Shown here one piece after another: positions 13,616 to 52,402 of a stretch of DNA of 64,000 bases (its first letter is position 1; every line of letters begins with the position of its first letter). The notes beneath the pieces were generated by a model. That model saw only the letters and a program-made list of their open reading frames with translations. It had not been told where the DNA came from and made no database searches. Source of the DNA: Bacteroidota bacterium (GTDB taxonomy: Bacteria > Bacteroidota > Bacteroidia > NS11-12g > UBA955); NCBI GenBank assembly GCA_027621365.1, contig JAQCBH010000001.1, positions 133,308 to 197,307 of the forward strand, read 5' to 3'. The translations under genes were made by a program, and so were the position numbers.

Positions 13616-13653
13616 GCCACAAAAATAAGCAGTTGCGGGCAGGTCCAAAACGA

Positions 13654-13681
13654 AAAAAGCCCCGAAATCGGGGCTTTTTTC
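13654..13681 (-). terminator. intrinsic terminator downstream of the PpiD-like gene
   Basis: The hairpin is gccccg-aaat-cggggc, flanked by A and T runs (aaaaaagccccgaaatcggggctttttt). Confidence 0.7.
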
Positions 13682-13698
13682 AACGATTGATTCTCTGA

Positions 13699-30322: not shown

Positions 30323-30985
30323 ATGAAAATCGGAATAACAGGCTCAGAGAAAGCAGTAAGAGAATGGCAGTCAGGACAAGACGCCCCATCTTCATTTGCA
30401 TGTTTGCAAGATACGAAGGAGCATCGCGATTGCCACGTTCTGATCGATTTGGATTTTGACCAGCACCCGGAGCGTCTTCAGGAATACGCTAGCAATTCCA
30501 ATACCCTGTTTTTGTTGAACGCCGTATCCTGCACATTGGAACAAGCCTTTGCCACTTGCAAGCTGGCCTATTCGGGTCAGCGAATGATAGGAATCAATGC
30601 TTGGCCCATTTGCCTAGAAAGGCCCGAATTGGAAGCGAGCAATCCCTTTTCTATCCAAGTGAAATCTGAGGAACTGCAAGCCTGCGGGTTCTCATCGGCT
30701 CGTTACTGCGATTCCCGCGTCGGATTGATCACACCTCGAATCATCTGTATGATCATCAACGAGGCCTATTATACGGTTCAAGAAGGCACGGCTGAACCCG
30801 ACGCCATTGATACCGCGATGAAATTGGGCACCAATTACCCCAAGGGCCCATTCGAATGGCTTTCTGTATGGGGACTTCACCGGGTGTACAAACTGCTCAA
30901 CGCCTTGTACGAAGACAGCCGTGAAGAGCGTTACAAGGTTGCCGCCAAGCTCAAACAAGATTGGCTCAGAAAGCAAATTCAATAG
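30323..30985 (+). CDS. 3-hydroxyacyl-CoA dehydrogenase family protein with a shortened, degenerate N-terminal NAD domain
   Basis: The C-terminal 3HCDH domain is clear (GLITPRIICMIINEAYYTVQEGTAEPDAIDTAMKLGTNYPKGPFEWLSVWGL). The N-terminus MKIGITGSEK lacks an intact GxGxxG motif. Confidence 0.6.
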   Translation: MKIGITGSEKAVREWQSGQDAPSSFACLQDTKEHRDCHVLIDLDFDQHPERLQEYASNSNTLFLLNAVSCTLEQAFATCKLAYSGQRMIGINAWPICLERPELEASNPFSIQVKSEELQACGFSSARYCDSRVGLITPRIICMIINEAYYTVQEGTAEPDAIDTAMKLGTNYPKGPFEWLSVWGLHRVYKLLNALYEDSREERYKVAAKLKQDWLRKQIQ

Positions 30986-31038
30986 GTGCAAACCTATTTT
31001 TGGTTCCAGCTACACGCACAACCATTTACCCAATTCAC

Positions 31039-31070
31039 AAAAAAAGCCCGGGCAAATGCCCGGGCTTTTT
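31039..31070. terminator. bidirectional intrinsic terminator between the 3HCDH-like gene and paralog 1
   Basis: It has the same 30-nt sequence as the terminator at 27873-27902 (aaaaagcccgggcaaatgcccgggcttttt). Confidence 0.75.
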
Positions 31071-31090
31071 CATGATTCTTATGATGAAAA

Positions 31091-34000
31091 CTAGTTCTGA
31101 ATGGTGATTTTCTGAGTAGCTGACTGAGTCTCGGAAGAAACGCGAATCAAGTAAACACCAGGAGTCAAACCGCTCACTTGTACGTCTACCAAACCGTTAT
31201 TAACGGCAGTAGAATTCCAAACGCGTTGTCCGCTCAAAGTAGTCAACTCCAAATTCACGTCCGTTCCGAAAGTGGGAGTCAAGGCCACTTGGAATTGTCC
31301 ATTGGAAGGATTCGGGAATACACCCATTCCTACTTTGGCCAATCCTTCAACCGCAGAGCGATTCATGACAAACTCCTTGCTCTTGGTACACTCACAACCC
31401 GTCTGGCGAACTTTGGCACGCATGGTAATGGTGTAAGTTCCGTCATCGACAAAGTTGTGCTGAACAGCCGCATTTTTATCAGCGCTGTAGAGCTTTCCAC
31501 CGCCTTCAAAGATCCAAGTGTAATCGACGTTGTCTTGACCGCCAGCGTTGCCGCTGCCATCGATGGGCTCAACGTTGACACCGAAGAATCCGAACGTATA
31601 ATCAGTTGAAGCCGTGAAGTCACAAGTGCGAGGAGCTTCGTTGATGGTTACACGCTGAGTCAAAGAATCGGCACAACCACCCTTGATGTAGGCATACAAG
31701 GTTACGTTGTAAGAAGTGGTTTGGATCACATTGTAGGTCTTAGAAGGATCACTGGCCGAAGCAGTGGTGTTGTCACCAAAATCCCAGTTGTAGCTGATCT
31801 CACCCTGAGGCCAAGTGGTATTGTTCACAAATACGACTGCCTCACCGGCACAAACATCACCAGCGGTAAAGTTGGCCTTGGGCTGAGTCAACACGCTCAT
31901 ATCTTTGGTCATGGTCTGAGAACATCCATTGTCCAAGGTAACGGTCAAGGTCACCGTTTTGGGGCCCAAAGAAGACCAGTTCTTGTTGAGAGATTTAGCG
32001 GTAGAGGTAGTACCGTCACCGAAGTCCCAAGCATAGTTCGCTACTGTACCTGCGATATCGGCAGTGGTATTGGTGAATTCTGTGGGAGTCAAAGAACAAG
32101 CGGCTGTGTTGGTGAAACTCACCTTGGGTGATTCACGCACCTCGATTTCTTTGACCATGGAATCTTTGCAACCAAATTCGCTGGTAGCAACCAACTTCAC
32201 CATCTTCTTACCAGCTGTTGAGAATTGGTGTTCAGCATCAACTTCAGTTGAAACAGAACCGTTGTCATCAAAATCCCAATAGCTACCGACCAAGCCGCTG
32301 TTGATGCTAGACTTGTTAGCAAAAGCAAAGGCTTCGTTGTCACAAATACCGTCAATCAAAGACCAATCGGCTTTGGGACGATCGAACTGATACACGCGCT
32401 GTGTCAAACTAGCCACACAACCGTTCAAATCGGCCGTTAAGGTTACATTGTAAGTACCTGCCTTAGCGTACTTGTGGGTAGGATTGTTGGCCGTACTAGT
32501 AGCACCATCACCAAAGGCCCATTTCCAAGTAGCCGTAGTAGGCGTAGTCTTGTTGGTAAATTCCAGATTCTCGCCTTCACAAGCATTCTTTTTATCAAAG
32601 GCAACCGTAGGTATAGCATTCACTTCAACCGACTGCGTATCGTGGAACACAAAGCCATAGGGCAAAGTTTTGGCCGTCAAGATGACATCGTAGGTTCCAG
32701 AAGCGGGGAACTGGAATACAGGCTCAGGAGCGTTTGAAGTGTCAGCTGCTGTGCCGGTGCCGAAGTTCCAGAAGAATTCCATTCCACCGCTCTTTACCGA
32801 GCTCATGTTTTCGAACAATACAGCCTCACCGTCACAAATCTTGGCGGGGAATACAAAATCAGGAGTGATAGAAGGATAAATCAACACATCGCGCTTGATT
32901 ACAGTATCACAACCGTTGTTTAAATCAGAGATTTTCACAAACCATGTGATGGTTGACTCTTCCAGACTAGCATCTGAAGTCATGAAAGACATCTGCAAAT
33001 CTGCAGTTCCACTTGGGGCTGTGAGGCTAGTCGTACCCGCCAAATCGTTACCATTGGCATCTTGGGCATAACTAGAGGCGGTCCAATCGGTTCCATAGGT
33101 CGCATTGCTCATGCCGCGAGGGGCCGTAAAATCAAACATAACGGGATTGTTGACGATAGTCACATCAAAGGGGCGACCCTTTTGGTACTTGGCTTGAGTT
33201 CCCGCAGATACACTGGCAATTTCACTACCACCAGGAGCCGGTTTAACGAATACAGACTTGCTGAAGGAATCATTCGAAGAATTATCGTCACCCAACAAGT
33301 GAACAATCACCTCGTTGTTGCCCCACTCATTAAACTTGAGCTTCGCACTTAACACAACTGATGCCGTATCGTTTGCCGGAATGTAAACATTAGCCACAGC
33401 TTGGTTTTCAATGCCGTTAACATTGAATACAACGGGAATGTCATAGGCCGTATCGCTGAAATTGTTTTTCAAGCGAACGCTTACCTCAAATTCAGAGCCT
33501 GAACAAACCGTATCGGTCAAAGCAGGACTAAAGGAAATATCATCCATGGCGATGTCCATGTACCCTTCAACCGCACCGTTATCAGACTTAATTGGGTTGC
33601 GCTTGTCGCCGTTTACATCGGTGGTCACCCAGGTAACAGAAGGAACTCCGTTTTGGTTCTTGAACTGACCAGAAGAGAAGTCACCGGCAGCAGGATCGGC
33701 AAACTTCGGGTCAACAAACTTGGCATTTTGCTCGTGGCCAGAAGCTTCGTAGGTAGCCCAAGAGGTATAAGTACCTTGGGTATTTCTCCAACCGTAAGAA
33801 GTGGTATTGGCATCAGGCTTGTACCAATAGCTGTTGTTGCTGTATTCTTTGATCTGACCATTGTTGTTCGAGTGAACGTGGAATTCGATTTGATCCCCAC
33901 CTTCAGCATACAACAGATTCCCTACCCAATACTGATTGTTGCTGTAGGAGTACGTATTGTATATGGGCCAGTTGGCATATCCGCCGGAGGAATAGTTATC

Positions 34001-35803
34001 CATTTTATTGTAGATGGTATTCTGGCGAATGTCCCAACGTTCATTGGTGCTGTAACTTGAATACAGATACATACCGTACACATCGTAGCGGTAAGAAGTT
34101 ACGTTGTGTACCAAGTTCGACTGGTTCTCCAATCCATAAGCATAGTACGAGAAGATACCGGCAGCATCAGAGTTACCACCTCGAATATAGCTCACGCGAT
34201 TGCGGCGAATCTTGTGGTTGCCATAGAAAATGTACATACCTACGGCAAAACTGTTGGTGGCCTCATTAGAGTCAATGAGGTTGTCATCGACTTCGATGGT
34301 GTTACCACTGGATGGATACGAATAGGCATTAATGCCTCTCAAAGCAGAACTACACTTGTTACCGCTGATTCTGTTGCCACTTACTGATACAGTGTTGTAT
34401 CCGAAATAGTGCAAAATACCGTAAAACGAATTTCCAGTAGATTCATTGTAGCAGATAATATTATTATCAGAAACGTAGTTGTCGTGATAATAATAGCGGG
34501 CTATGCCATAGAATATTCCACTCGATTTATTGTTATTGATTTCATTTGAGCTCGTACTGGTGCGTCTGGCATAATAGTACATGTAAATGCCATAGAAAGA
34601 GCTGCTCGACGTATTGCCGTTCCAAGTATTCTTATCAACCTTGGAGTCATTTGCATAGTAATAGGCATACAACCCATAGAAGGTTCCGCTTACCTTGTTG
34701 TTGTCCCAATGGTTGTTGTTGATGTTGGCACGCTCCAAATAGTAGTAGTTGTAGAGGCCATAGAAGGATCTAGAGACAGAATTGTTCGAAAAACTGTTTC
34801 CCGTCATGTGCAAATAACGAGGGTAATAGTAGGCGTATACCCCGTAATAAGTGCCCGATGCCGTGATGTTGTCAAACTTATTGTTGTGAATGCCCCAGTA
34901 ATAACAGTAGTAATACGGATATACACCGTTAAAAGTTGAAGCAGAAGAATTGCTGAAATCATTGCCTTCAACAGAAACGTAATAAGAGTAATAGCCATCA
35001 ACACCTGTGCGAGAGCCGCTGGTACTTTGACCACTAAAATCATTGTTCAAGATGGAGTCGCCCGCCGCATAGTAAATGCGAACACCGTAGCGATACCACT
35101 TTTCGATTTTATTGTTTTTGATGACGTTTTGACCATTGGTAGTGCTGGAGTAGTAACTGCGGTTGTTTGTAATAGCAATGGCATATCCAGGGCCATACGA
35201 ACCCGAAGATTTCATGGTATTCTTTTCGATGCGGTTGAAACGACCCGTCCAAGAATAGGTCGAACTGGTGTAACCGGTAGTCGAAGGAGCAAATGCAACG
35301 TAAGAACCAATTGTAGATGCACTGGAACGACGGGTGTACTCCAACACGCAATTGATGATGCGGTTGTATTCACTTACGTTGGTGAATCGCACAATGTTCG
35401 TACCCGTAGAGGTAGAAGTGTGCAAGATCTTAACCCCGTTGAAGGTAACATAATCGGCACCGTTGAACAGAATGGCATCGGTAGATCCCGAATAGGAATA
35501 CGAATAACCATTTCCGTCGATGGTGATGGTGTTGGTCGAACTTGCTCCACTAATGGAATTAAAGGTCGTCGTGGAAGACGAACTAACGTCGCTGATCAAC
35601 TTGGCTGTGACAGCGCCATTCACGCCACCTGAAGACAAGGCCGAAGCAAAGGCTGCCAGGGTGGAGTAATTGCCTCCTGATCCAATGGTATAACTGCCGC
35701 TCATGGCTGCCTTCAGCGAGGCTGAAGAACCCATGAAGAACAATCCCCCAAGGACCAGAGCGAGGTACTTGTTTTTGATAATTTGATTGTAGTGTTTCAT
35801 CAT
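31091..35803 (-). CDS. giant T9SS-secreted surface protein, paralog 1: signal peptide, Tyr-rich repeat array, about 6 PKD-like domains, T9SS CTD
   Basis: 1570 aa. It starts with MMKHY and a signal peptide (..SSASLKAAMS). Tandem 27-29-residue repeats follow (..SFYGLYNYYYLERANINNNHWDNNKVSGTFYGLYAYYY..). PKD-type motifs are present (WNFGTG, WAFGDGATS, WDFGDGTTS, WDFGDNTT). The C-terminus is a type A CTD (GVFPNPSNGQFQVAL...GVYLIRVSSETQSATQKITIQN). Confidence 0.85.
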   Translation of the reverse strand: MMKHYNQIIKNKYLALVLGGLFFMGSSASLKAAMSGSYTIGSGGNYSTLAAFASALSSGGVNGAVTAKLISDVSSSSTTTFNSISGASSTNTITIDGNGYSYSYSGSTDAILFNGADYVTFNGVKILHTSTSTGTNIVRFTNVSEYNRIINCVLEYTRRSSASTIGSYVAFAPSTTGYTSSTYSWTGRFNRIEKNTMKSSGSYGPGYAIAITNNRSYYSSTTNGQNVIKNNKIEKWYRYGVRIYYAAGDSILNNDFSGQSTSGSRTGVDGYYSYYVSVEGNDFSNSSASTFNGVYPYYYCYYWGIHNNKFDNITASGTYYGVYAYYYPRYLHMTGNSFSNNSVSRSFYGLYNYYYLERANINNNHWDNNKVSGTFYGLYAYYYANDSKVDKNTWNGNTSSSSFYGIYMYYYARRTSTSSNEINNNKSSGIFYGIARYYYHDNYVSDNNIICYNESTGNSFYGILHYFGYNTVSVSGNRISGNKCSSALRGINAYSYPSSGNTIEVDDNLIDSNEATNSFAVGMYIFYGNHKIRRNRVSYIRGGNSDAAGIFSYYAYGLENQSNLVHNVTSYRYDVYGMYLYSSYSTNERWDIRQNTIYNKMDNYSSGGYANWPIYNTYSYSNNQYWVGNLLYAEGGDQIEFHVHSNNNGQIKEYSNNSYWYKPDANTTSYGWRNTQGTYTSWATYEASGHEQNAKFVDPKFADPAAGDFSSGQFKNQNGVPSVTWVTTDVNGDKRNPIKSDNGAVEGYMDIAMDDISFSPALTDTVCSGSEFEVSVRLKNNFSDTAYDIPVVFNVNGIENQAVANVYIPANDTASVVLSAKLKFNEWGNNEVIVHLLGDDNSSNDSFSKSVFVKPAPGGSEIASVSAGTQAKYQKGRPFDVTIVNNPVMFDFTAPRGMSNATYGTDWTASSYAQDANGNDLAGTTSLTAPSGTADLQMSFMTSDASLEESTITWFVKISDLNNGCDTVIKRDVLIYPSITPDFVFPAKICDGEAVLFENMSSVKSGGMEFFWNFGTGTAADTSNAPEPVFQFPASGTYDVILTAKTLPYGFVFHDTQSVEVNAIPTVAFDKKNACEGENLEFTNKTTPTTATWKWAFGDGATSTANNPTHKYAKAGTYNVTLTADLNGCVASLTQRVYQFDRPKADWSLIDGICDNEAFAFANKSSINSGLVGSYWDFDDNGSVSTEVDAEHQFSTAGKKMVKLVATSEFGCKDSMVKEIEVRESPKVSFTNTAACSLTPTEFTNTTADIAGTVANYAWDFGDGTTSTAKSLNKNWSSLGPKTVTLTVTLDNGCSQTMTKDMSVLTQPKANFTAGDVCAGEAVVFVNNTTWPQGEISYNWDFGDNTTASASDPSKTYNVIQTTSYNVTLYAYIKGGCADSLTQRVTINEAPRTCDFTASTDYTFGFFGVNVEPIDGSGNAGGQDNVDYTWIFEGGGKLYSADKNAAVQHNFVDDGTYTITMRAKVRQTGCECTKSKEFVMNRSAVEGLAKVGMGVFPNPSNGQFQVALTPTFGTDVNLELTTLSGQRVWNSTAVNNGLVDVQVSGLTPGVYLIRVSSETQSATQKITIQN

Positions 35804-35885
35804 AGACTATATGGTTTGTGCCCAAATTATGATTTTCTATTTCTATATGCAAGTTTTTCATAATTTTTGACATTGGGCTAAAAAA

Positions 35886-35910
35886 AACCCCGGCCTTGCG
35901 GGCCGGGGTT
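35886..35910 (-). terminator. intrinsic terminator downstream of paralog 2
   Basis: A 10-bp stem (aaccccggcc/ggccggggtt) is followed by a T run on the minus strand. Confidence 0.75.
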
Positions 35911-35936
35911 CTGAAAACCTATAATCTAACGATGAA

Positions 35937-38900
35937 TTAGTCTACCAAAGTCACCTTCTGTGAGGCGCTGTGGCTTTCGCTCTGAACGCTCAAGTAGTAG
36001 ACTCCAGCAGGCATGTCGCTTAAGTCGATATTCAACAAACCATTGTTGCTGTATGACTGAGTCAAAACAACCTGACCATTGGTATTGCGAACCATCAACT
36101 GAACCTCAGAACCGAAGTCCTTGCTCAGGGCAACATTCAACTGACCTTCGGTGGGGTTCGGGAACACTCCCATACCCACGCTAGCCAAACCTTCTGCTGC
36201 TGCACGGTTCATGACAATTTCTTTGCTCACCGTACACTCGCAACCGGTCTGACGAACCTTGGCACGCATGGTAATGGTGTAAGCCCCGTCATCTTGGAAG
36301 TTGTGCTGAACAGCGGCATTCTTATCGGCACTGGTCAATTTTCCACCGCCTTCGAATACCCAAGTGTAATCTACGTTATCCTGACCACCAGCGTTTCCGC
36401 TTCCGTCTACAGGCTCAACAGATACACCATAGAAACCAAAAGCGTAGTCAGTTGTGGCTACGAAGTCGCAGGTACGGGGAGCTTCGTTTACAGTTACACG
36501 CTGCGTGATTGAATCAGCGCATCCGCCCTTGATGTAGGCGTACAAAGTAACGTTGTAAGAGGTGGTTTGAATCACGTTGTAGCTCTTGCTAGGATCAGAA
36601 CTGCTAGAAGTGGTATTATCACCGAAATCCCAGCTGTAGCTGATTTCACCCTGAGGCCAAGTCGTGTTGTTCACGAAGATAACAGCGTCACCCGCACAAA
36701 CATCAGAAGCCGAGAAGCTAGCCTTAGGCTGAGTCAACACGTCTACATCTTTCTGAATGGTCTGGCTGCATCCGTTGTCCAAGGTCACGGTCAAGGTGAT
36801 CACCTTGGGACCCAAGTTGCTCCAGTTCTTAGAAGGTGACTTCGCGGTAGAAGTTGTACCGTCACCGAAGTTCCAAGAGTAGTTGGCAACTGTACCTGCA
36901 ATATCAGGAGTGGTATTCGTGAACTCAGTTGGAGTCAACGAACAAGCGGCCGTAGCGGTGTAAGACACTTTGGGTGACTCTTTCACTACAATGGCTTTGG
37001 TCATGGAATCTTTGCAACCGAATTCGCTGATGCTGACCAATTTCACATTCTTAGAACCGGCAGAAGCAAACATGTAGATGGGATTGTCATCGGTAGAAAC
37101 CGCTCCGTTATCATCGAAGTTCCAATAGCTACCGGCCAAACCGCTGCTGATGCTAGACTTGTTGGCGAATTCAAACTCATCATTGTCACAGGTACCGCTA
37201 ACCAAATTCCAATCAGCCTTGGGCTTATCAAACTGGTAAACGCGCTGGGTCAATGTAGCCACACAACCATTCAAATCAGCCGTCAAGGTTACGCTGTAGG
37301 TTCCTGCTTTGGCATACAAGTGGGTAGGATTGGCCGCTGTTGAAGTGGCGCCATCACCGAAGGCCCATTTGCTGGTAGCCGTGGCGGGAGTTGTCTTGTT
37401 GGTAAATGACAAGGCTTCGCCTTCGCAAGCATTCTTCTTGTCGAATGCTACGGTAGGAATGGCATTCACCTCTACTTCTTGGGTGTCGTAGAATTCAAAA
37501 CCATAAGGCAAGGTCTTCGCGGTCAATACCACATTGAACTTACCAGAAGCAGGGAACTGGAAAACGGGCTCAGGAGCGTTTGATGTATCAGCCGCGTTAC
37601 CGGTACCGAAGTTCCAGAAAAATTCCATGCCACCGCTCTTCACAGTAGAAGTGTTTTCGAACAACACAGCGTCACCGTTGCAAATTTTAGCAGGGAACTT
37701 GAATCCAGGAGTAATGCTGGGGTAAATGAATACATTGCGGCTGATGAGGGTATCACAACCGTTCTGCAAGTCAGAAATCTTCACATAAACCGTCAGGGTG
37801 CTGTCTTCGTAGGCTCCGTTCGAAGTCACAAATTGTACTTCAGCATCAGATGAACCACTGGGAGCCGTCAAAGAGGCACCTGTTACGGCTACACCACCTT
37901 CAGACACTGCAAAAGCAGACGCGGTCCAAGTAGAACCATAGCCGCTGTTGCTCATGCCACGAGGAGCATTGATATCATAAATAACGGGGTTGTTCAAGAT
38001 GGTCAAATCACGAGGTGTACCGCGGAAATAACGAGCCTGCGTAGGCTTTGTTGAAGCGGTGAACTCCGACCCTCCAGGAGCAGGCTTTACGAATACAGAG
38101 GTAATGCTCGAGTCGTTGGCAGGATTGTCATCACCAGCCAAGTGAACCACTACGCTATTGGTTCCCCACTCGTTCAATTTCAATTTGGTTTGCAAAGTGT
38201 AGGAAGCAGAATCGCCAGGAGCAATGCTCACGGCAGCCTCAGCCATGGTTATTTTTCCGTTCACGTTGAAGGCAACTGGAATATCAGCGGCGGTATCAAT
38301 GAACAAGTTGCCAATTTTTACACTCACGGTGTACTCAGAACCCGAGCAAACGGTATCGCTCAAAGCAGGACTGAACGACATGCCCAACATTTGAAGATCC
38401 AAGTACCCTTCGATGGCACCACGGTCAGACTTGGGAGTGGCGCGATCTACGCTGTACAAGTCTTTTTTAGAGGCATTAGCAGATGAAACGGTATTCTGGT
38501 TTTTGAACTGTCCAGAAGCGAACTTATCCTTGTTGACATCTTCAAAACGAGGGTCTAAGAACAATTCGCGCTGGGCAAATCCTGAACCGTTGTAAGCGGC
38601 AAAGCTGCTGTAGGAACCAGAAGGAGTCTGCCAGGAGTAAGCGGAGGTGTTGGCGTCAGGCTTGGTGAACCAAGTGTTATCGCTGAAATTCGTTACGGTT
38701 CCGTTGTTGTTGGCCATGTACAAGGGAGTTACTTGATCACCGCCTTCGCAGTATACCAAGTTGCCCGCCCAATTCTGGTTGCTGCTCAAGCAGTAACCGT
38801 TGTTGAAACCGTAGTTGATGTATCCGCCGGCAGAATAATTCTCCATTTTGTTGTAAATGGTATTCTGGCGAATGTTCCAACCATTGCCACCGGTGTAAGC

Positions 38901-40814
38901 GCTGTTGTACAGATAGAAAGCATAAACATCATACGACTTTGAAGTCACTTTGGCCACCAAATTCGACTCACAATTCAAGCCCATCGCGTAGTAAGAGAAA
39001 ATACCGGCAGCATCAGATCCGTTACCGCGATTGCTGGTCACATGGTTGCGGCGAATGTTGTGATCTCCGTAGTAGATGTACATACCTACGGTGTAGGAAT
39101 TGGACGCCGTATTGGAATCAATAGAATTGTCTTCCACATTGATGACATAACCCGTGGTCGGGTAAGCATAACCCGCAATACCAATTAAAGCTGAACTTGA
39201 ATTATTGCTGCGAATAATGTTGCGGTTGATTTCAACGTTGTAATAACCGTAGATGTTGTAGATACCGTACAGAGAAGAAGCCTGTGAGGTATTGTTTCTG
39301 ATGTAGTTATCGTTGGTCTTGTAGTAATCGTGGTAATAACCGCGGTAGATGCAATACATGGTTGAGTACGAGGTATTGTCGCACACCTTGTTCTTGCTCA
39401 CGCTGGTGCGGTACGCATAATAATAGATGTAGGTACCATAAAACGTGCTACCCGTAGTGGTGTTTCCTGAAATGGAGTTTTCCTCAATTTTTTCGTCCAT
39501 TCCGTAGTAGTAGGCATACAAACCGTAGAACGTGCTGGCCGCTTTGTTGCCATCAATGGTGTTCTTGATGAATTTACCATTCGACAAGTAATAGTAGTTG
39601 TACAAGCCGTAAAAGGTGCTAGACGTGCTGTTGTTGTCGATGTGGTTGTTCGAGATGGTGCAATACTGCGGATAGTAATACGCATACATTCCATAGAAAG
39701 TACTGCTCGCCGTGTTGCCACTGATGCTGTTGTTGTCCCAGGTGCTGTACATGGGATAGTAGTAGGCATAGAAACCATAGAATGTGCTACCGCTGTTTTT
39801 ATCAATGGTATTGTTGCTGATGGTGCTATAATAGTTGTAGTAGTAGTTATAAATACCAATGAAGGTACTGCTGGTCTTGTTGTTGTCGATTTTGTTGCCA
39901 TCTACAGTCCAGTAGTAGCAGTAGTAGTAGGGAGCAATGCCATAAAACGTTGACGTAGCGGTGTGACCCGAAATGTCATTGCCCTTGATGTATGCATAGT
40001 AGTTGTAATAACCGTAAATACCGTAGTAGGCCCCATGCGACTGATTCTTCATGGTATTGCTAACGGCTGAGTCGCCATTGGAATAGTACATTCGAATACC
40101 ATAGTAGTAGGCCTGTTGGATATCGTTGTTTTCAAACATGTTGCCACCCTGAACAGATGAACTGCTGTAGTAGCTGGTATTGCCGTTGATAACAATACCG
40201 TAGTACGGGCCATAAGAACCAGAGGCCGATGATTTCATCGTCACTCCACTTACTCGGTTGTAACGACCGTTCCAAGAGGAAGAAGCAGAACTTAAAGCCG
40301 TGTATGACGAAGCCAATGCCACGTAAGCACCATACGACGAGGTAGAAGTACGAGCCGTGAACTCAATGCTTCCCCCTTTGATGCGGTTGTAGGTCGCATC
40401 GTTGGTCAAACGATAACCAATGCCATACACACTGGAAGAAGTGTTGATGACGTTCAAATTGTCGAAAGTCATGTAGTCGGTTCCGTTCAAAATGAACACT
40501 TCATAGCTGCTGCTGGAAGTGATTTTGTAACCGTTACCGTTGATGGTAATGGTGTTGGTCGAGCTGGCTCCCGTAATCGCATTGAAAGTGACGGCCGAAG
40601 AACCGGCAGACAAATCACTGGTCACGTTTACGGTCAAAGCACCGTTCACACCGTTGTTGTTCAACGCTGAAGCTAGGGCTGCCCAGGTGGTGTAGGTACC
40701 GCCTGATCCCAGGGTTACCGTGCCACTCAACTGAGCCATAGCCGATCCACTCAAGAGACCTAGGGTCACCAAAATGGCAGCGCGAAGCTTGGAAGTAAAG
40801 TAATGTTTCATCAT
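35937..40814 (-). CDS. giant T9SS-secreted surface protein, paralog 2
   Basis: 1625 aa with the same architecture as paralog 1. It starts with MMKHY and a signal peptide (..SGSAMAQ). There are at least 12 Tyr-rich repeats (..NSISGNTASSTFYGMYAYYYPQYCTISNNHIDNNSTSSTFYGLYNYYY..). PKD-like domains follow, and the CTD reads GVFPNPTEGQLNVAL...GVYYLSVQSESHSASQKVTLVD. Confidence 0.85.
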   Translation of the reverse strand: MMKHYFTSKLRAAILVTLGLLSGSAMAQLSGTVTLGSGGTYTTWAALASALNNNGVNGALTVNVTSDLSAGSSAVTFNAITGASSTNTITINGNGYKITSSSSYEVFILNGTDYMTFDNLNVINTSSSVYGIGYRLTNDATYNRIKGGSIEFTARTSTSSYGAYVALASSYTALSSASSSWNGRYNRVSGVTMKSSASGSYGPYYGIVINGNTSYYSSSSVQGGNMFENNDIQQAYYYGIRMYYSNGDSAVSNTMKNQSHGAYYGIYGYYNYYAYIKGNDISGHTATSTFYGIAPYYYCYYWTVDGNKIDNNKTSSTFIGIYNYYYNYYSTISNNTIDKNSGSTFYGFYAYYYPMYSTWDNNSISGNTASSTFYGMYAYYYPQYCTISNNHIDNNSTSSTFYGLYNYYYLSNGKFIKNTIDGNKAASTFYGLYAYYYGMDEKIEENSISGNTTTGSTFYGTYIYYYAYRTSVSKNKVCDNTSYSTMYCIYRGYYHDYYKTNDNYIRNNTSQASSLYGIYNIYGYYNVEINRNIIRSNNSSSALIGIAGYAYPTTGYVINVEDNSIDSNTASNSYTVGMYIYYGDHNIRRNHVTSNRGNGSDAAGIFSYYAMGLNCESNLVAKVTSKSYDVYAFYLYNSAYTGGNGWNIRQNTIYNKMENYSAGGYINYGFNNGYCLSSNQNWAGNLVYCEGGDQVTPLYMANNNGTVTNFSDNTWFTKPDANTSAYSWQTPSGSYSSFAAYNGSGFAQRELFLDPRFEDVNKDKFASGQFKNQNTVSSANASKKDLYSVDRATPKSDRGAIEGYLDLQMLGMSFSPALSDTVCSGSEYTVSVKIGNLFIDTAADIPVAFNVNGKITMAEAAVSIAPGDSASYTLQTKLKLNEWGTNSVVVHLAGDDNPANDSSITSVFVKPAPGGSEFTASTKPTQARYFRGTPRDLTILNNPVIYDINAPRGMSNSGYGSTWTASAFAVSEGGVAVTGASLTAPSGSSDAEVQFVTSNGAYEDSTLTVYVKISDLQNGCDTLISRNVFIYPSITPGFKFPAKICNGDAVLFENTSTVKSGGMEFFWNFGTGNAADTSNAPEPVFQFPASGKFNVVLTAKTLPYGFEFYDTQEVEVNAIPTVAFDKKNACEGEALSFTNKTTPATATSKWAFGDGATSTAANPTHLYAKAGTYSVTLTADLNGCVATLTQRVYQFDKPKADWNLVSGTCDNDEFEFANKSSISSGLAGSYWNFDDNGAVSTDDNPIYMFASAGSKNVKLVSISEFGCKDSMTKAIVVKESPKVSYTATAACSLTPTEFTNTTPDIAGTVANYSWNFGDGTTSTAKSPSKNWSNLGPKVITLTVTLDNGCSQTIQKDVDVLTQPKASFSASDVCAGDAVIFVNNTTWPQGEISYSWDFGDNTTSSSSDPSKSYNVIQTTSYNVTLYAYIKGGCADSITQRVTVNEAPRTCDFVATTDYAFGFYGVSVEPVDGSGNAGGQDNVDYTWVFEGGGKLTSADKNAAVQHNFQDDGAYTITMRAKVRQTGCECTVSKEIVMNRAAAEGLASVGMGVFPNPTEGQLNVALSKDFGSEVQLMVRNTNGQVVLTQSYSNNGLLNIDLSDMPAGVYYLSVQSESHSASQKVTLVD

Positions 40815-41010
40815 AGTTTAGTTTTACAGATACTAACGAAAGTATCTACTTACTTTACCTAAAAAAACAATGACTCCTGCTCCATAAACAATATGACAGA
40901 TTTTTTGACAGAGACTATAAACGACTGCAAGTCAATTACTTTTTATTAGTACCACTCCTATTTTTTGTCATTCATTGGAGTTTCCATCGGGCAGATATCC
41001 AGATAAAAAA

Positions 41011-41040
41011 AAGGAGGCCCAGCATGCGCTGGGCCTCCTT
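41011..41040 (-). terminator. intrinsic terminator downstream of paralog 3
   Basis: A 13-bp stem (aaggaggcccagc/gctgggcctcctt) is followed by a T run on the minus strand. Confidence 0.8.
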
Positions 41041-41069
41041 TTAGACAGTTTTGATAACTGATTTTTTCT

Positions 41070-44000
41070 TTAGTTCGTCTTCGTGATTTTTTGAGTCACG
41101 CGGGCGTTTTCTGACGTTACCGTCAACATGTACACGCCGCTGGCCAAGTCGCTGATGTTGACGCTAGTCAAGCCCATATTGGCTTCCTGTGCGCTGTACA
41201 CCACCTGACCGCTCATAGTGGTCACGATCAAGTTCACCTGGCTGCCGATGGTCTCGGTCATGGCCACGTTGAACATGCCTTCGCTGGGGTTGGGGTATAC
41301 CCCTACTCCACTCTTAGCCAAGCCTTCTGCCGCCGCACGATCCATGACGATCGTCTTGGTCTGTGTGCACTCGCATCCGGTCTGACGAACCTTTGCACGC
41401 ATGGTCACCTTGAATGTTCCATCGTTCTGGAACTCGTGGTTCACCGCTGCATTCTTGTCTTGAGTCTGCTTGCTTCCGCCACCTTCAAAGATCCAGGTGT
41501 AGTCTACGTTGTCTTGGCCACCCGTTACACCGCTACCGTCTACGGGCTCTGCTACGATGCCGTAGAAGCCGAAGCTGTAGTCAGGAGTTACCGTGAAGTC
41601 ACAAGTACGGGGAGCTTCGTTGACTGTTACACGCTGAGTGATAGAGTCGGCGCAGCCGCCTTTGATGTAAGCGTACAAGGTTACGTTGTACGAAGTCGTC
41701 TGGATCACGTTGTAAGCCTTGCTAGGATCTGAGTTCGTAGACGAGGTGTTGTCTCCGAAATCCCAGTTGTAGCTGATCTCACCCTGAGGCCACGTTGTGT
41801 TGTTCACGAAGATCACGGGATCACCCGCACATACGTCGCCTGCCTCAAAGCTTGCCTTGGGCTGGGTCAATACGTTCATGTCTTTGGTGATGGTCTGTGA
41901 GCAACCGTTGTCCAAGGTTACGGTCATGGTCACGGTCTTGGGGCCCAAAGCCGTCCAGTTCTTAGAAGGTGACTTCGCCGTTGAAGTAGTGCCGTCACCG
42001 AAGTTCCAGGCGTAGTTGGCTACAGTGCCTGCTACATCAGGAGTGGTGTTGGTAAAGGCTGTGGGGGTCAACGAACATGCCGCAGTGCTTACGAAGGAAG
42101 CTTTGGGTGATTCGCGTACCTCAATTTGCTGGATCAATGAATCCTTGCAACCGAATTCGCTGGTCATCACCAACTTCACTTGCTTCTTACCGGCCGCTGA
42201 GAACTGGTGCTCGGCGTCCATCTCTGTGCTTACAGCACCGTTGTCGTCGAAATCCCAGTAGCTACCCGCCAAACCGCTGCTAATGCTAGACGTGTTGTCA
42301 AATACAAAACCGTCGTTGTCGCAAGTTCCGCTCACCAAGTTCCACTTCGCAGTGGGCTTGTCGAACTGGTATACGCGCTGAGTCAAGCTCGCTACACAAC
42401 CGTTCAAGTCAGCGGTCAAAGTCACGCTGTAGGCTCCAGCCTTGGCATACTTGTGAGTGGGGTTGGCTGAGGTGGAAGTAGCACCGTCACCGAAGGCCCA
42501 CTTGCTGGTAGCCGTAGCAGGAGTTGTCTTGTTCGTAAAGGTCAAGTTCTCACCCTCACAAGCGTTCTTCTTGTCGAAGGCCACCGTGGGAATGGCGTTT
42601 ACTTCTACCGCTTGGGTATCGTAGAACACAAAGCCGTAAGGCAAGGTCCTAGCCGTCAATACCACGTTGTAAGTACCCGCACCAGCGAACTGGAACACAG
42701 GCTCAGGAGCGTTGGAGGTATCGGCTGCGTTGCCAGTACCAAAGTTCCAAAGAAACTCCATACCTCCTGACTTCACATTTGATTTGTTCTCAAACAATAC
42801 TGCGTCACCGTCACAAATCTTAGCGGGGTATTTGAAATCAGCATCGATTGAGGGGTAAATCAAAACGTTGCGCTTGATCAAGGTATCGCAACCATTGGTC
42901 AAGTCAGTAATCTTGGTTACTACGGTAATGGTCTCGTCTTCCAAAGAAGCATCAGAGGTTACAAAAGTTACCTCCAAATCAGCTGAACCAGTGGGAGCTA
43001 AAACAGAGGCGCCGCTTACGCTGCTACCATCGGCTTTCTCTGCATAGGCAGAAGCCGTCCATTCTGTACCGTACGTAGAATTGCTGTAAACACGAGGAGC
43101 GTTTACATCGTAAATCACAGGCTGGTTGATGACAGTTACGTCAAAGGGACGACCTTTTTGGTAGATTGTAGCCGTGGGTGATGAAGAAGGAGTGTACATT
43201 CCACCGCCAGGAGCAGGCTTTACCACTGTGGTAAATGAGAAGGTATCATTAGAGGTCTTGTCGTCTGGAACATTGACAAAAACTTTTACTGTCGTCAATC
43301 CTGGATCATTCAAGAACACATCTTTTCCAAACGTAATGGTTGCAGAATCACCAGTGGCAATGCTCGCATTGACGAATTCATTCACAGGGGATCCATCATT
43401 GACAGAGAAGGAAACATTAAAGCCTTTTACGGTATCGACGAAATTGTTCTTGATTTTGATGTCAGCGCTAAAAGTATAGCCAGAACAAACTGAGTCGGGC
43501 AAATTAACAGACGTAGACAATCCCTCAATATCCAATACGCTTTCCAAAGCACCGCGATCAGAGGCGGTTGCATTGCGAGCGACCATAGCCAAATCATCAG
43601 CTACAGCAATAGAAGCAGGCACGTTGTTCTGGGCAGCAAAGGCGTTTGACTTGTAATCACCCTTTGCAATGTCATTGAATTTGGGATCGTGGTATTTTTC
43701 TCCGGAACCTGGCAAGCCGGTATTCATCCATCCTGTAAAGTCAGTACCATTACCATTGGGATTGTACCAATATTGTCCAGAGAAATTGTTGATGTAATAA
43801 GAGTTGTGATCAATGCCTTTTACGTTAGTAGAATTACCATAACAGTAAACAGGGTAGGTATAGTAACCATTTTTAAAGTTGACAATGTTACCATAAATAC
43901 GAGTATCGCCATAAGCACCACCGTAAATACCATACGTGTAATTGTAGGTGTATTGGGCATTAGAATTATCTACATAAAATGTATTTTGTACAATGTCCTT

Positions 44001-45527
44001 GCTATATGAAGTTGAACGTGAGTAAAAATACAAACACATGTTTGTGCTATTACACTGATTGTTAGCCACCAAGTTTGAAGCAACCAATGCCTTCACATCA
44101 TAATACACATACATTGCATAGATGCTTGAGTAGGTATAACCAAACGCTTTGTTGTCAACCAATTTGTTGCGTTCAACTTTCCAGTTCGAGGTACTGTTGT
44201 AGTTGTACAGATATAACAAATACATGGTATATCCAGAAGAGCCACTATTGTTGTTTCTCGCCACAGTGTTATCACTTGCTGAGTTGTTGGAACCCGAGCA
44301 GTAATAAGGATAGATACCGTAGAAGTAGTAACCCTTGCTTTCGTTATCAGTTACTGCATTTTCATCAACAGTTACACCTGAAACGTAGTAAGGATACAAA
44401 GCATAGAAGTAGTATCCATTGTTGTAGTTATTGGCGATTGTATTGCCATCAATGTTGAAATCGTTTCCGCGGAAAGCATAAACGCCATAGAAATAATAGG
44501 CAGAAATGCAATTTTTTACTGTATTGTTTTCAACCTTATTCGGACGGGCAGCAGCTCCGTAGTTGTAGTAGCAATAAACTCCATACAAATAACTCGCACC
44601 TACAGAAGTCGAAGCATTCTCATAAGGCAAATCGTGAATATTGTTGTTAGAAATGATGTTCGAACGATCAGTGGCGTATGAATAATTGTTGTACACACCG
44701 TACAAGTAAGAAGTGAAGCCTCTGTTGGTACCCGCATTCTTACGAGAAATGTCGTTGCCATCAGCTTGGTCACCATTGGTGTATTGCATCCAAATACCAT
44801 AGTAATAGAAATTCTCAATGGTATTGCCCTTGAAGGTATTGTTCGAACCTTGAGAACTGTAGTAGCTAGTGGTTCCACGGTCTGCAATCGCATGTGAAGG
44901 ACCAGGGCTGTTGCTATTCAAGGTGCGCATCAAGTTGTTGCTAATGGTGTTGTTCTGACCGTTCCACGCAGTTCCTGAAGAAGGGCTGGTGTAGCTGCTG
45001 GAAAACCATACGTAACCTCCACCATTGGTAGTTCCTGCGGTGCGGTTGGTGTACTGCAACGTACACTTGTTGATGGTGTTGTAAACTGAGCCATTGGTGA
45101 AACGAATCATCATGGCGTAGGAGTTTGTAGACGTGTTTTGTACCGTCAAATTTTCAAGCGTTACATAATCAGCACCGTTAAACAACATAACCTGGTAACC
45201 TACGGAAGCGCTTAGCGTCTTGCCATTTCCATCAATGGTGATGGTGTTGGTAGAGCTTGCCCCGCTGATAGCCGACAAGGTCAAAGAAGAAGTCAAGGTC
45301 TCATCGTTCATGACCTTAACGGAAACTGCGCCACTGACGCCAGATCCATTCAAGGCTGAAACGAAAGCCGACCATGATTGATAGTTGCTACCGCTGGTTG
45401 ACTTGGTGTTGTCAATCGTGTAGCTGCCGCTCAATTGCGCATTCAGCGCAGAAGAGGACCACCCAAGAAAAATGACCAAAATAAAGGCCATCAGTTTGGA
45501 TACTAATGATTTGTAGTGTTTCATCAT
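41070..45527 (-). CDS. giant T9SS-secreted surface protein, paralog 3
   Basis: The start was chosen at the MMKHYKSL Met pair (45527), matching paralogs 1 and 2; the tracked ORF begins 9 codons earlier. The N-terminal repeat region is more divergent (..YYFYGVYAF.., ..YYFYALYPYY.., ..YYFYGIYPYY..). The PKD region is highly similar to the other two. The CTD reads GVYPNPSEGMFNVAM...GVYMLTVTSENARVTQKITKTN. Confidence 0.85.
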   Translation of the reverse strand: MMKHYKSLVSKLMAFILVIFLGWSSSALNAQLSGSYTIDNTKSTSGSNYQSWSAFVSALNGSGVSGAVSVKVMNDETLTSSLTLSAISGASSTNTITIDGNGKTLSASVGYQVMLFNGADYVTLENLTVQNTSTNSYAMMIRFTNGSVYNTINKCTLQYTNRTAGTTNGGGYVWFSSSYTSPSSGTAWNGQNNTISNNLMRTLNSNSPGPSHAIADRGTTSYYSSQGSNNTFKGNTIENFYYYGIWMQYTNGDQADGNDISRKNAGTNRGFTSYLYGVYNNYSYATDRSNIISNNNIHDLPYENASTSVGASYLYGVYCYYNYGAAARPNKVENNTVKNCISAYYFYGVYAFRGNDFNIDGNTIANNYNNGYYFYALYPYYVSGVTVDENAVTDNESKGYYFYGIYPYYCSGSNNSASDNTVARNNNSGSSGYTMYLLYLYNYNSTSNWKVERNKLVDNKAFGYTYSSIYAMYVYYDVKALVASNLVANNQCNSTNMCLYFYSRSTSYSKDIVQNTFYVDNSNAQYTYNYTYGIYGGAYGDTRIYGNIVNFKNGYYTYPVYCYGNSTNVKGIDHNSYYINNFSGQYWYNPNGNGTDFTGWMNTGLPGSGEKYHDPKFNDIAKGDYKSNAFAAQNNVPASIAVADDLAMVARNATASDRGALESVLDIEGLSTSVNLPDSVCSGYTFSADIKIKNNFVDTVKGFNVSFSVNDGSPVNEFVNASIATGDSATITFGKDVFLNDPGLTTVKVFVNVPDDKTSNDTFSFTTVVKPAPGGGMYTPSSSPTATIYQKGRPFDVTVINQPVIYDVNAPRVYSNSTYGTEWTASAYAEKADGSSVSGASVLAPTGSADLEVTFVTSDASLEDETITVVTKITDLTNGCDTLIKRNVLIYPSIDADFKYPAKICDGDAVLFENKSNVKSGGMEFLWNFGTGNAADTSNAPEPVFQFAGAGTYNVVLTARTLPYGFVFYDTQAVEVNAIPTVAFDKKNACEGENLTFTNKTTPATATSKWAFGDGATSTSANPTHKYAKAGAYSVTLTADLNGCVASLTQRVYQFDKPTAKWNLVSGTCDNDGFVFDNTSSISSGLAGSYWDFDDNGAVSTEMDAEHQFSAAGKKQVKLVMTSEFGCKDSLIQQIEVRESPKASFVSTAACSLTPTAFTNTTPDVAGTVANYAWNFGDGTTSTAKSPSKNWTALGPKTVTMTVTLDNGCSQTITKDMNVLTQPKASFEAGDVCAGDPVIFVNNTTWPQGEISYNWDFGDNTSSTNSDPSKAYNVIQTTSYNVTLYAYIKGGCADSITQRVTVNEAPRTCDFTVTPDYSFGFYGIVAEPVDGSGVTGGQDNVDYTWIFEGGGSKQTQDKNAAVNHEFQNDGTFKVTMRAKVRQTGCECTQTKTIVMDRAAAEGLAKSGVGVYPNPSEGMFNVAMTETIGSQVNLIVTTMSGQVVYSAQEANMGLTSVNISDLASGVYMLTVTSENARVTQKITKTN
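41092..41267. repeat. copy A of a 176-nt near-identical repeat (3' end of paralog 3)
   Basis: Aligned by eye to 45766-45941, I see only 2 mismatches (gttgacgct vs gttcacgct; catagtgg vs cattgtgg). Confidence 0.9.
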
Positions 45528-45546
45528 AAGAATTGTTTTCAGAATC
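45515..45546. repeat. left arm of an imperfect inverted repeat covering the paralog 3 start codon and 5' leader
   Basis: The plus strand agtgtttcatcataagaattgttttcagaatc pairs with 45691-45727 (gattcgtgaaaacaacaatccttaatgatgaaacact). The perfect 13-bp core is ATGATGAAACACT, and the flank is gapped but clearly related. Confidence 0.8.
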
Positions 45547-45663
45547 GTTCGCAATATATCAATATTTCATCATCAGTGGCTTTGTTTTTTCATGATTATG
45601 AAAAAAAACTATTTCAATTTCTTAACAACTGAAAAACATGATTCATGTATGACATAAATGCAC

Positions 45664-45687
45664 AAAGGCCCGCCGAAGCGGGCCTTT
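45664..45687 (-). terminator. hairpin terminator downstream of the orphan CTD fragment and upstream of paralog 3
   Basis: The stem-loop is aaaggcccgc-cgaa-gcgggccttt. The T run on the minus strand is weak (tttgtgcattt). Confidence 0.55.
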
Positions 45688-45690
45688 GCT

Positions 45691-45727
45691 GATTCGTGAA
45701 AACAACAATCCTTAATGATGAAACACT
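45691..45727. repeat. right arm of the inverted repeat: an inverted copy of the paralog 5' leader plus ATGATGAAACACT
   Basis: See the left arm at 45515-45546. On the plus strand it opens only a 17-codon ORF (MMKHWIVGFSGYCLVIF*). Confidence 0.8.
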
Positions 45728-45746
45728 GGATCGTCGGTTTCTCGGG

Positions 45747-45941
45747 TTACTGTTTGGTGATCTTCTGAGTCACGCGGGCGTTTTCTGACGTTACCGTCAA
45801 CATGTACACGCCGCTGGCCAAGTCGCTGATGTTCACGCTAGTCAAGCCCATATTGGCTTCCTGTGCGCTGTACACCACCTGACCGCTCATTGTGGTCACG
45901 ATCAAGTTCACCTGGCTGCCGATGGTCTCGGTCATGGCCAC
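45747..45941 (-). pseudogene. orphan 3' fragment of a fourth paralog (T9SS CTD only)
   Basis: The 64-aa ORF MAMTETIGSQVNLIVTTMSGQVVYSAQEANMGLTSVNISDLASGVYMLTVTSENARVTQKITKQ is essentially identical to the CTD of paralog 3. Homology stops abruptly at 45941/45942 and is replaced by AT-rich sequence. Confidence 0.85.
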
Positions 45942-46104
45942 ACACGGATTAAAAATACCTATAATTGAGCCAACAATGACTCTAGTAATTAACCCTAATT
46001 GATCAAATAATCACAATAAATCAATAAGAATGAATAGTTTCAATATCGAAGAAACTAAAAACTATAACCCTAAACAGGAATGAAACTCTGGGCGAGAAAT
46101 TTTC

Positions 46105-51660: not shown

Positions 51661-51748
51661 AGAGAGGTGTCCGAGTGGTTGAAGGAGCACGCCTGGAAAG
51701 TGTGTATACGCCAAAAGCGTATCGAGGGTTCGAATCCCTTCCTCTCTG
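51661..51748 (+). tRNA. tRNA-Ser (anticodon GGA)
   Basis: I folded the cloverleaf by hand. The acceptor stem is AGAGAGG/CCTCTCT with discriminator G. The anticodon stem is CACGC/GTGTG with loop CTGGAAA. A long variable arm makes it class II. The T arm is GAGGG-TTCGAAT-CCCTT. CCA is not encoded. Confidence 0.88.
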
Positions 51749-51757
51749 CAACCCCGC

Positions 51758-51787: not shown

Positions 51788-52402
51788 CATGCCCCAAAAC
51801 CGAGTCAAGCTTGCTTGAATGAAGGTGGCGGGGCATGAAAACCCACGCCGCAGGCGTGGGGCTTTTGCGGGGTTGACACTCCCCTCTTGGGATCAGCGAG
51901 CGAAGCGAGCTAGTTCCCGGCGCAAAACTCAGAATTTGTGTTGGATAGCCCTAGTTTTATCTCAATTGGTACGCACTAAAAAAATTCCGCTTTGTAATCT
52001 TGAATTGAATTTTCGAATAATACAGCAATTCGTTCAATACAGTTTTATTAAACACCAATCATTACTCAAGCAGACTTTAGGTTCTTCAACTGGGGAGTAT
52101 TACACTTTATCAACCAAGCTTTTGGTCCATTAACACTAGAGTTTTGCAATTTGATGATTTTGTATCAATATTTAGTAAATGTAATAGTTGAAATTTGCTT
52201 GTATGATCTAAACATAAATTAAGTTATGGCAAGGGTTAAAAAACATAACAAGAACATTTTTCGTTTCGAGATTGGAAGAAAGGATTTTCATGCTGGGAAT
52301 ACCGATAGAGGTCTTTCAGATAGAAATTCTAATCAAAGACCAATCCCCTACCGGATTATATTATTTAATTATCAGCTGTTACATAGTTTTGCCTTTGGCA
52401 AA

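Follow-up and report, generated by a model that had tools for sequence, protein, structure and literature searches.

Tandem giant genes for putative T9SS cargo proteins in an uncultured Bacteroidota bacterium are probably old paralogues with a constrained stalk

We analysed a 64,000-nt stretch of DNA (the window) from an uncultured Bacteroidota bacterium, known solely through metagenomes, and found that three giant genes arranged head-to-tail on its minus strand (A, B and C; Table 1) are probably old paralogues of an uncharacterised family of type IX secretion system (T9SS) cargo proteins that carry a type A sorting domain. Their mosaic of similarity would stem from selective constraint together with old sequence exchange, in an array that evolves by birth and death. 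An initial annotation had read these genes (1570, 1625 and about 1485 aa, which we confirmed as open reading frames, ORFs) as a variable adhesin or antigen family whose stalks are kept alike by gene conversion while the distal parts diversify.

Architecture of the three proteins and their mosaic identity

All three proteins are built from the same parts: signal peptide, beta-helix, CARDB-like domain, immunoglobulin (Ig)-like domain, a run of about six PKD domains and the T9SS sorting domain of type A. The Sec-type signal peptide was read from the sequence (MMKHY, a hydrophobic core and an A-x-A-like site, AMA/Q, LNA/Q or LKA/A), and AlphaFold (AF2) places a low-confidence N-terminal helix at residues 3-19 of A. 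The C-terminal domain (CTD) matches both Por_Secre_tail (PF18962; 45.2, 47.6 and 50.2 bits in A, B and C, cut-off 27) and the NCBIfam model of the type A sorting domain, TIGR04183 (45.9, 42.6 and 45.4 bits, cut-off 23). The PKD families (PF18911/PF00801) are represented by PKD_4, with E-values of 1.7e-58, 4.4e-53 and 5.5e-57 in A, B and C, over six stretches apiece. The Pfam Beta_helix/NosD families (PF13229, PF05048; CASH-type) score 41.1 bits in A and 33.1 bits in B, above the cut-off of 25.9, and 17.4 bits in C, below it.

The window also encodes the T9SS translocon SprA/Sov (2361 aa; 2503-9588, plus strand; SprA_N E 5e-173), a PorZ-like protein directly 3' of SprA that carries its own CTD (9585-11834, plus strand) and a GldG-like ABC auxiliary protein (61-1836, plus strand), which places core genes for the T9SS and for gliding at about 20 kb from the array. 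Hence, a secretion route is present. With both sorting-domain models above their cut-offs, and SprA and the PorZ-like protein in the window, the initial description of the three proteins is supported as far as T9SS cargo is concerned.

AF2 models were built on family alignments, with A modelled in two pieces, residues 1-870 and 855-1570. We found that the first piece is predicted to form a single long three-stranded beta-helix followed by a beta-sandwich at 751-854 (predicted local distance difference test, pLDDT, 88.5; predicted template modelling score, pTM, 0.83), and the second a string of eight beta-sandwich beads, the last of which is the CTD (pLDDT 88.4). The head is about 690 aa long and consists of 28-residue, Tyr/Asn-rich coils, Tyr making up 15-19% and Asn 12-15% of the central part (aa 251-650) in all three proteins. 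An FYGxYxYYY-type motif recurs in the central coils every 27-29 aa; its strict form occurs 11 times in B, 5 times in A and 4 times in C. Gene B encodes the most regular beta-helix, and the head of C is more divergent and less regular. The beta-helices of A and B also contain 84-nt coil repeats, which had been overlooked.

Foldseek searches of the PDB matched the beta-sandwich of A (751-854) to the CARDB domain of 3idu/2kl6, with a target template modelling (TM) score of 0.63-0.69. The head of A best matched PL6 alginate lyases (E 8e-8), with a TM of only 0.23-0.26 and 9-11% identity, and its stalk best matched the tandem Ig-like stalk of Aureispira GhpA (E 1.6e-24), also at low TM. A PDB sequence search with the head gave no match, and neither Pfam nor NCBIfam assigned a CAZy-type family to A, B or C.

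Identity among the three proteins is not uniform along their length. Pairwise values are 39-54% in the first 854 aa, 56-59% in A855-967 (the first ~113 aa past KPAPGG), 80-82% in A968-1500 (about 530 aa) and 40-49% in the final 70 aa. The mosaic noticed earlier is thus real, but its conserved block spans about 530 aa rather than ~700. Identity from KPAPGG to the protein end, put at four-fifths by the initial annotation, is actually 73-74%, and the long identical DNA runs it described reach only 25 nt (A-B and B-C) or 35 nt (A-C).

At the DNA level the stalk block is 74-76% identical (73-81% by repeat and BLAST tools). By the Nei-Gojobori method, the proportion of nonsynonymous differences (pN) in the block is 0.13 and that of synonymous differences (pS) is 0.64-0.70 (dS 1.4-2.0), near saturation, with a dN/dS of about 0.05-0.2; in the heads, pN is 0.32-0.44 for the A/B/C pairs and pS is saturated. 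A protein identity above the DNA identity, combined with a low dN/dS, reads as the signature of purifying selection on old duplicates. Hence, given a stalk pS of 0.64-0.70 with a pN of 0.13, the high stalk identity at the protein level would mostly reflect purifying selection. For annotation, the lesson is that high protein identity of a stalk does not equal recent gene conversion and that synonymous sites need checking.

A GENECONV-like permutation test, as the initial annotation had proposed, recovered among A, B and C only runs of 6-11 consecutive polymorphic sites in agreement (3-9 codons; p 0.0045-0.21, uncorrected). The positive control, a pair of genes from a relative, gave a run of 31 sites (p = 0.0005).

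Orthologues, exchange of C-terminal halves and lost copies

We compared the window with related contigs, which are partial and come from different species (loci numbered with an L). L001 and L004 carry orthologues of A and B at the corresponding syntenic position, and L005 and L006 share the flanking genes. One-to-one comparison with L004/L001 gave 89-90% identity for A, 94-97% for B (94% for its L004 orthologue, g2) and 96% for a C-like C-terminal part; C orthologues are 91% (P0005, L091) and 89% (L092) identical. The pN between A and its orthologue (0.074) is level with that of flanking housekeeping genes (pN 0.06-0.11, pS 0.57-0.78). Each of the three genes thus has a separate orthologue of its own at this locus, and there has been no recent conversion among them, nor any homogenisation since the split from the sampled species. 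They are therefore ordinary conserved orthologues of genes in related species; divergence along them is non-uniform, as had been expected of a variable family, but the orthologues are conserved in relatives, though at this same locus.

Copy number varies between the conserved flanks, a comparison that the initial annotation had called for: one giant gene in L006 (GCA_002737705.1), three in the window and at least four in both L004 and L005, the last a 337-kb contig (JGI 3300071516) with at least four tandem family members at 317-14494, the syntenic site. One extra copy in L004, B2, is 81% identical to B. In more distant contigs the flanks are also kept, with an FAD-dependent protein, TrpRS and glycosyltransferases on one side, and 3HCDH, L-PSP, DUF3467, aldehyde dehydrogenase and others on the other. 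Hence, the locus is a clean syntenic example of a family with one to at least four copies between the same housekeeping neighbours.

Head (N-terminal) and PKD stalk were placed in separate neighbour-joining (NJ) trees with 200 bootstraps. In the stalk tree, the window-clade paralogues (A, B, B2, C and a fourth type, D, represented by P0004 in L090) are monophyletic in 200/200 bootstraps. In the head tree this monophyly appears in 9/200, and C joins genes of another lineage in 181/200, those of the type of L5_g1, which lacks the exact KPAPGG anchor. The same codon is used at 52-57% of conserved stalk residues, vs 42% expected from codon usage (z 4.0-6.4), and at the expected level between the C head and the heads of A and B. 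Stalk pS (0.64-0.70) lies below the between-clade saturation of 0.76-0.87.

Corroborating exchange, pS between the L005 genes g2 and g3 drops at about codon 800 from 0.53-0.94 to 0.11-0.48; their C-terminal halves are 84-97% identical in DNA, with identical runs of up to 134 nt (permutation p = 0.0005), and the CTDs of all three L005 copies compared are 99-100% identical. The D head is 27-67% identical to that of C (pN 0.37, pS saturated), whereas the D stalk (pN 0.026, pS 0.39) is as close to C as C orthologues are among themselves. These comparisons indicate that the family exchanges C-terminal halves episodically. The conversion proposed across the stalk would therefore stand as an episodic process at the family level and not as a recent one among A, B and C, given their pS. 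As a locus for studying conversion, L005 is much better than the window; homogenisation there is clear and recent.

Between the gene for the FAD-dependent protein and gene C, we found a relic that had escaped the initial annotation. It contains a 62-aa ORF starting with ATG (MTETIG...KITKQ and a stop; 45747-45935, minus strand), matches TIGR04183 (E 6.6e-11) and over 188 nt shows 97.3% DNA identity with the 3' end of gene C, the sole near-identical DNA shared between copies in the window. At the same position in L092 the frame is open further upstream, to the contig end; after it come a spacer, 92% identical, and the C orthologue. Hence, the relic is the remnant of an upstream copy, D. It is 95.9% identical to gene C (195 aligned columns) and 90.3% identical to its positional orthologue in L092, which hints at D/C conversion before the deletion, although the tract is short. 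The ORF is probably non-functional, although its terminator is kept and the promoter region of gene C adjoins it. In another assembly (L087, 4877-5065) the relic is called as a gene, with a Por_Secre_tail match.

The 3' end of gene C switches sequence type in a four-way alignment. The gene has C-type sequence as far as 23 nt (41080-41102) common to C-type and B2-type genes, and beyond these it follows B2-type sequence (GACGAACTAA), its last codons being KTN and a stop. The terminator and spacer 3' of C are B2-type as well, the C-B spacer being 76% identical to the L004 g1-g2 spacer. This ending suggests a crossover that deleted B2, a loss less secure than that of D, and the order D-C-B2-B-A would fit as the simplest ancestor consistent with the pieces.

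The sequences of the window proteins recur exactly on a 270-kb NCBI contig, and other members of the same 90% clusters are labelled Bacteroidota or Bacteroidia metagenome-assembled genome (MAG) proteins. A metagenome scan with the C head returned only two short contigs, one of them L092. A search of 1.84 billion representative proteins with the B head yielded 598 matches with E-values up to 1e-3, 279 of them at or below 1e-10 and 26 at or below 1e-30; most cover its first 240-400 residues only, often in the form of modules repeated within proteins 2000-4700 aa long. A profile search of genome contigs with the family alignment found only distant PKD proteins (at most 36% identity), through generic PKD motifs. 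Homologue, PDB-sequence and literature searches gave no characterised relative, homologues being unnamed or generically named metagenome or MAG proteins, and the literature held nothing specific on this architecture or on T9SS gene conversion; we thus agree with the initial annotation that no characterised family has this architecture.

Selection, alternative explanations and known systems

Between orthologues, the central coils are the most divergent part (pN 0.10-0.17, vs 0.01-0.03 in the stalk), and pS is raised there too. This divergence fits relaxed constraint, repeat reshuffling or allele replacement; positive selection is not demonstrated, as no measurable dN/dS rises above about 0.2. 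For the A and B orthologues, pN and pS both peak in the central coils (33900-35100 for A and 38900-40100 for B, minus strand); over codons 151-450 of A against L004 g3, pN is 0.14-0.17 and pS 0.77-0.79, vs a pS of 0.22-0.58 elsewhere. Such a coil-confined peak suggests segment replacement or repeat reshuffling at that place.

Three other assemblies (L087, L088 and L089) are 99.993-100% identical over 9.3-24.8 kb including the array. We found no silent cassettes or invertible-promoter repeats in the array (30900-46200; the flanking genes were not screened for recombinases), and all three genes are complete ORFs with their own leaders and terminators, not partial donor cassettes. A cassette system for antigenic variation was rejected on the identical runs of at most 35 nt, the complete ORFs and the near-identity of the three assemblies; invertible promoters were rejected because no flanking inverted repeats occur within the array. 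The genes look like a surface-protein family of an ordinary kind, in which copies are gained and lost, and not like one engaged in active antigen switching; nothing in the sequence points to programmed variation or a new mechanism. With dN/dS below 1 wherever measurable, no cassettes in the array and a locus 99.99-100% identical in three assemblies, the variable adhesin or antigen family of the initial annotation is not supported as a variation system.

We favour an account in which the proteins would be exported by Sec, pass through the SprA translocon, have the CTD cleaved and then most likely be anchored on the cell surface. Each would be a rod in which about eight beta-sandwich beads (the Ig-like domain, some six PKD domains and the CTD) make up a membrane-proximal stalk that holds out the CARDB-like domain and the ~690-aa beta-helix head. 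The head, the part that differs between paralogues, would bind, or possibly cleave, different polysaccharide or particle ligands. Purifying selection much stronger on the stalk than on the head would be the main cause of the mosaic, and episodic, non-reciprocal exchange of C-terminal halves between neighbouring copies a second; among A, B and C this exchange would be old, falling before the split from the L001/L004 species and after the split from the L005 lineage. The array would evolve by birth and death through unequal recombination, and the window would have lost D, of which the 63-codon relic is left, and may also have lost B2.

It is highly improbable that ongoing conversion maintains the likeness of the A, B and C stalks and that the heads are driven apart by diversifying selection, as in a variable adhesin or antigen system, and for these three genes the idea is already largely refuted. 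The identity mosaic, the conversion-like mosaics of relatives, a relic CTD nearer to gene C (95.9-97.3%) than to its L092 positional orthologue (90.3%) and the divergence of the central coils between orthologues (pN 0.10-0.17 vs 0.01-0.03 in the stalk) would all suit it. However, stalk DNA is 74-76% identical with a pS of 0.64-0.70 and no identical run longer than 35 nt, the permutation test gave only 6-11-site runs (p 0.0045-0.21 before correction for multiple tests), orthologues cluster by copy and not by genome, dN/dS is about 0.2 or less wherever measurable, three other assemblies are 99.99-100% identical, and cassettes or invertible-promoter repeats are absent within the array. Differential constraint alone, that is, a single ancient duplication, never any exchange and a merely slow-evolving stalk, is quite improbable. 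The stalk dN/dS of about 0.05-0.2 agrees with it, as do the lack of significant long tracts among A, B and C and a stalk pS below head pS between orthologues too, which suggests an intrinsically slower block. It is contradicted by the conflict between head and stalk trees (window-clade monophyly in 9/200 vs 200/200), by the sharp switch with which D/C and L005 g2/g3 join saturated heads to stalks with a pS of 0.26-0.44, by an excess of same-codon use confined to the stalk and by the 99-100% identical CTDs of the L005 paralogues.

As to function, it is possible though doubtful that the heads are enzymes, beta-helix polysaccharide lyases or hydrolases serving nutrition as isozymes with different substrates; this idea bears on function alone and does not conflict with the evolutionary account. 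Many Bacteroidota T9SS type A cargoes are glycan-degrading enzymes, the heads match the CASH-type Beta_helix/NosD families, their nearest structures are PL6 alginate lyases (E 8e-8), and a GH20 gene and two glycosyltransferase genes also lie in the window. Yet the TM of these structure matches is only 0.23-0.26, the proteins match no CAZy-type Pfam or NCBIfam family and no PDB chain by sequence, and the regular Tyr/Asn coil repeats look more like a surface for structure or binding than like the cleft of an active site. We consider it unlikely that a few ancient head types (A/B-like, C/L5_g1-like and D-like) have been kept across species by balancing or niche-partitioning selection while stalks were repeatedly homogenised in each lineage; were this so, the genes would form a family of bacterial receptors with a variable head on a constant stalk, the number of copies (one to at least five) tuning to which particles, algae or glycans the cell can attach.

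Several points weigh against our preferred account of old paralogues under constraint with old exchange and copy loss. In orthologue pairs, too, stalk pS is somewhat below head pS, and a slower synonymous rate in the stalk block could explain part of the lower stalk pS. The head tree is an NJ tree of saturated, repeat-rich alignments, in which the grouping of C with L5_g1 (181/200) could reflect long-branch effects. The C orthologue in L092 also ends in KITKTN, an ending that thus predates the split of the window from L092, and the B2-type ending of C may stem from conversion over a short tract instead of marking where B2 was deleted. The order D-C-B2-B-A was assembled from partial contigs of different species (L004, L090 and L092), none of which holds all five copies. 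Surface anchoring, rather than release, is presumed, and the function of the head is predicted from its fold only, with a weak similarity to PL6 (TM 0.23-0.26).

Among known systems, the type A CTD cargoes RgpA, Kgp and HagA of P. gingivalis are alike in having a Sec signal, a modular beta-rich passenger, a type A CTD and T9SS genes. Gingipain adhesin modules are near-identical in DNA, whereas DNA identity between copies of A, B and C is low; the latter also differ in lacking a protease or haemagglutinin domain, in carrying a beta-helix on a PKD stalk, in forming a single tandem array and in belonging to an uncultured environmental host, not a pathogen. Among the surface virulence factors of P. 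gingivalis, domains are shared and swapped through rearrangement and allelic exchange, with mosaics as the outcome (PMC5266723). These factors are a known parallel for domain exchange among T9SS cargoes.

The long Ig/PKD-like bead string is shared with Aureispira GhpA (PDB 9flp, 9fly and others; E 1.6e-24, 16-22% identity), which we take to be an extracellular appendage protein of Bacteroidota. GhpA, described as a grappling-hook protein (bioRxiv 10.1101/2024.01.29.577165), differs in exceeding 5000 aa and assembling into hooks; the TM of 0.23-0.47 amounts to a generic bead-string likeness, and A, B and C show no sign of oligomeric hooks, predation or a beta-helix head in common with it. PL6 alginate/chondroitin lyases (PDB 7dmk, 8bwk) share the right-handed parallel beta-helix and are the best fold match of the head, and differ from it in coil length, in the Tyr-rich repeat and in sequence (TM 0.23-0.26, 9-11% identity, no Pfam or PDB sequence match).

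The gliding adhesins SprB and RemA of Flavobacterium are very large, repetitive and exported by the T9SS, with several paralogues per genome. They differ in bearing type B CTDs (TIGR04131/PF13585), whereas A, B and C are type A, much smaller and without homology to SprB repeats. An SprB-type adhesin was rejected, since only the type A CTD model matches and PF13585 is absent from A, B and C; PF13585 is present in more distant matches. Birth and death combined with homogenisation of part of the gene also occurs in tandem families with partial concerted evolution, such as msp-7 and SERA in Plasmodium and the clustered silk genes of spiders (PMC3458108, PMC3058004, PMC9779670); these are unrelated proteins and organisms, and the evolutionary mode alone is comparable.

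Large T9SS surface proteins make up a major, mostly unannotated share of environmental Bacteroidota genomes. This locus illustrates how such a family may evolve, by duplication and deletion through unequal recombination, occasional stalk homogenisation and long-lived divergent heads. Well delimited and modelled with confidence, the heads lend themselves to assays of ligands or of enzyme activity.

Transcription units, feature coordinates and other genes in the window

Each of the three genes is followed by a strong hairpin with a T-run (-22.7 to -29.4 kcal/mol, z -4.6 to -6.6) and preceded by a spacer of 64-71% A+T, as the initial annotation had described. The Bacteroidetes -7 promoter motif TAnnTTTG has no exact match upstream of A, B or C, only relaxed ones. 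Hence, from their own terminators and AT-rich leaders, with putative promoters, A, B and C are likely transcribed separately. The mechanical ORF of gene C extends to a TTG at 45554, upstream of the MMKHY ATG. The MMKHY start codons (ATGATGAAACA[CT]TAC) are common to all copies and to D in L090 (35789-35803, 40800-40814 and 45513-45527 in the window, minus strand); this start region is kept although the signal peptides diverge, and the 5' leaders of C and D are alike.

Table 1. Features of the array, in window coordinates
Feature	Position	Strand	Extent or property	Basis
Gene A	31091..35803	-	1570 aa	ORF, Pfam, NCBIfam TIGR04183, AF2 models, orthologues
Gene B	35937..40814	-	1625 aa; architecture as A	ORF, Pfam, TIGR04183, orthologue
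Gene C	41070..45527	-	1485 aa from ATG of MMKHY; architecture as A	ORF, Pfam, TIGR04183, orthologues
Beta-helix head, A	33644..35704	-	aa ~34-720; about 23 coils of ~28 aa	AF2, Pfam, composition
84-nt (28-aa) tandem coil repeats in beta-helix, A	34488..34873	-		Repeat search
84-nt (28-aa) tandem coil repeats in beta-helix, B	39505..39887	-	Motif spacing 27-29 aa	Repeat search
CARDB-like beta-sandwich, A	33242..33553	-	aa ~751-854	AF2; Foldseek
Conserved stalk block, A	31304..32902	-	aa 968-1500; 80-82% aa, 74-76% nt vs B, C	Alignment, repeat families
Conserved stalk block, B	36150..37748	-	aa 1023-1555	Alignment, repeat families
Conserved stalk block, C	41283..42881	-	aa 883-1415	Alignment, repeat families
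Type A T9SS C-terminal sorting domain, A	31094..31321	-	aa 1495-1570	PF18962 and TIGR04183 above curated cut-offs
Type A sorting domain equivalents, B and C			B aa 1550-1621; C aa 1410-1483	PF18962, TIGR04183
Sequence-type switch, 3' end of gene C	41070..41102	-		Four-way alignment with L004 g0, g1
Relic of lost upstream copy D	45747..45941	-	195 nt; last 63 codons, truncated type A CTD	nt identity, TIGR04183
Terminator hairpin 3' of gene A	31041..31070	-	-27.4 kcal/mol; bidirectional, common to convergent 3HCDH gene	
Terminator hairpin 3' of gene B	35880..35910 (about)	-	-22.7 kcal/mol	
Terminator hairpin 3' of gene C	41009..41042	-	-29.4 kcal/mol	
Terminator hairpin of relic copy	45662..45689	-	-25.4 kcal/mol, z -5.8	

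The array's immediate neighbours with a Pfam match are metabolic genes. Further away, a 1107-aa ORF (60002-63325, minus strand) has an N-terminal CutC domain (residues 7-190) as its sole Pfam match, the other ~900 aa being without one. A tRNA-Ser(GGA) gene (51661-51749) is followed by a stretch of 37% GC (to ~54600), vs about 50% elsewhere, which holds two ORFs without a Pfam or PADLOC match (52226-52891 and 52892-54580). This low-GC stretch is probably a small islet inserted at the tRNA gene.

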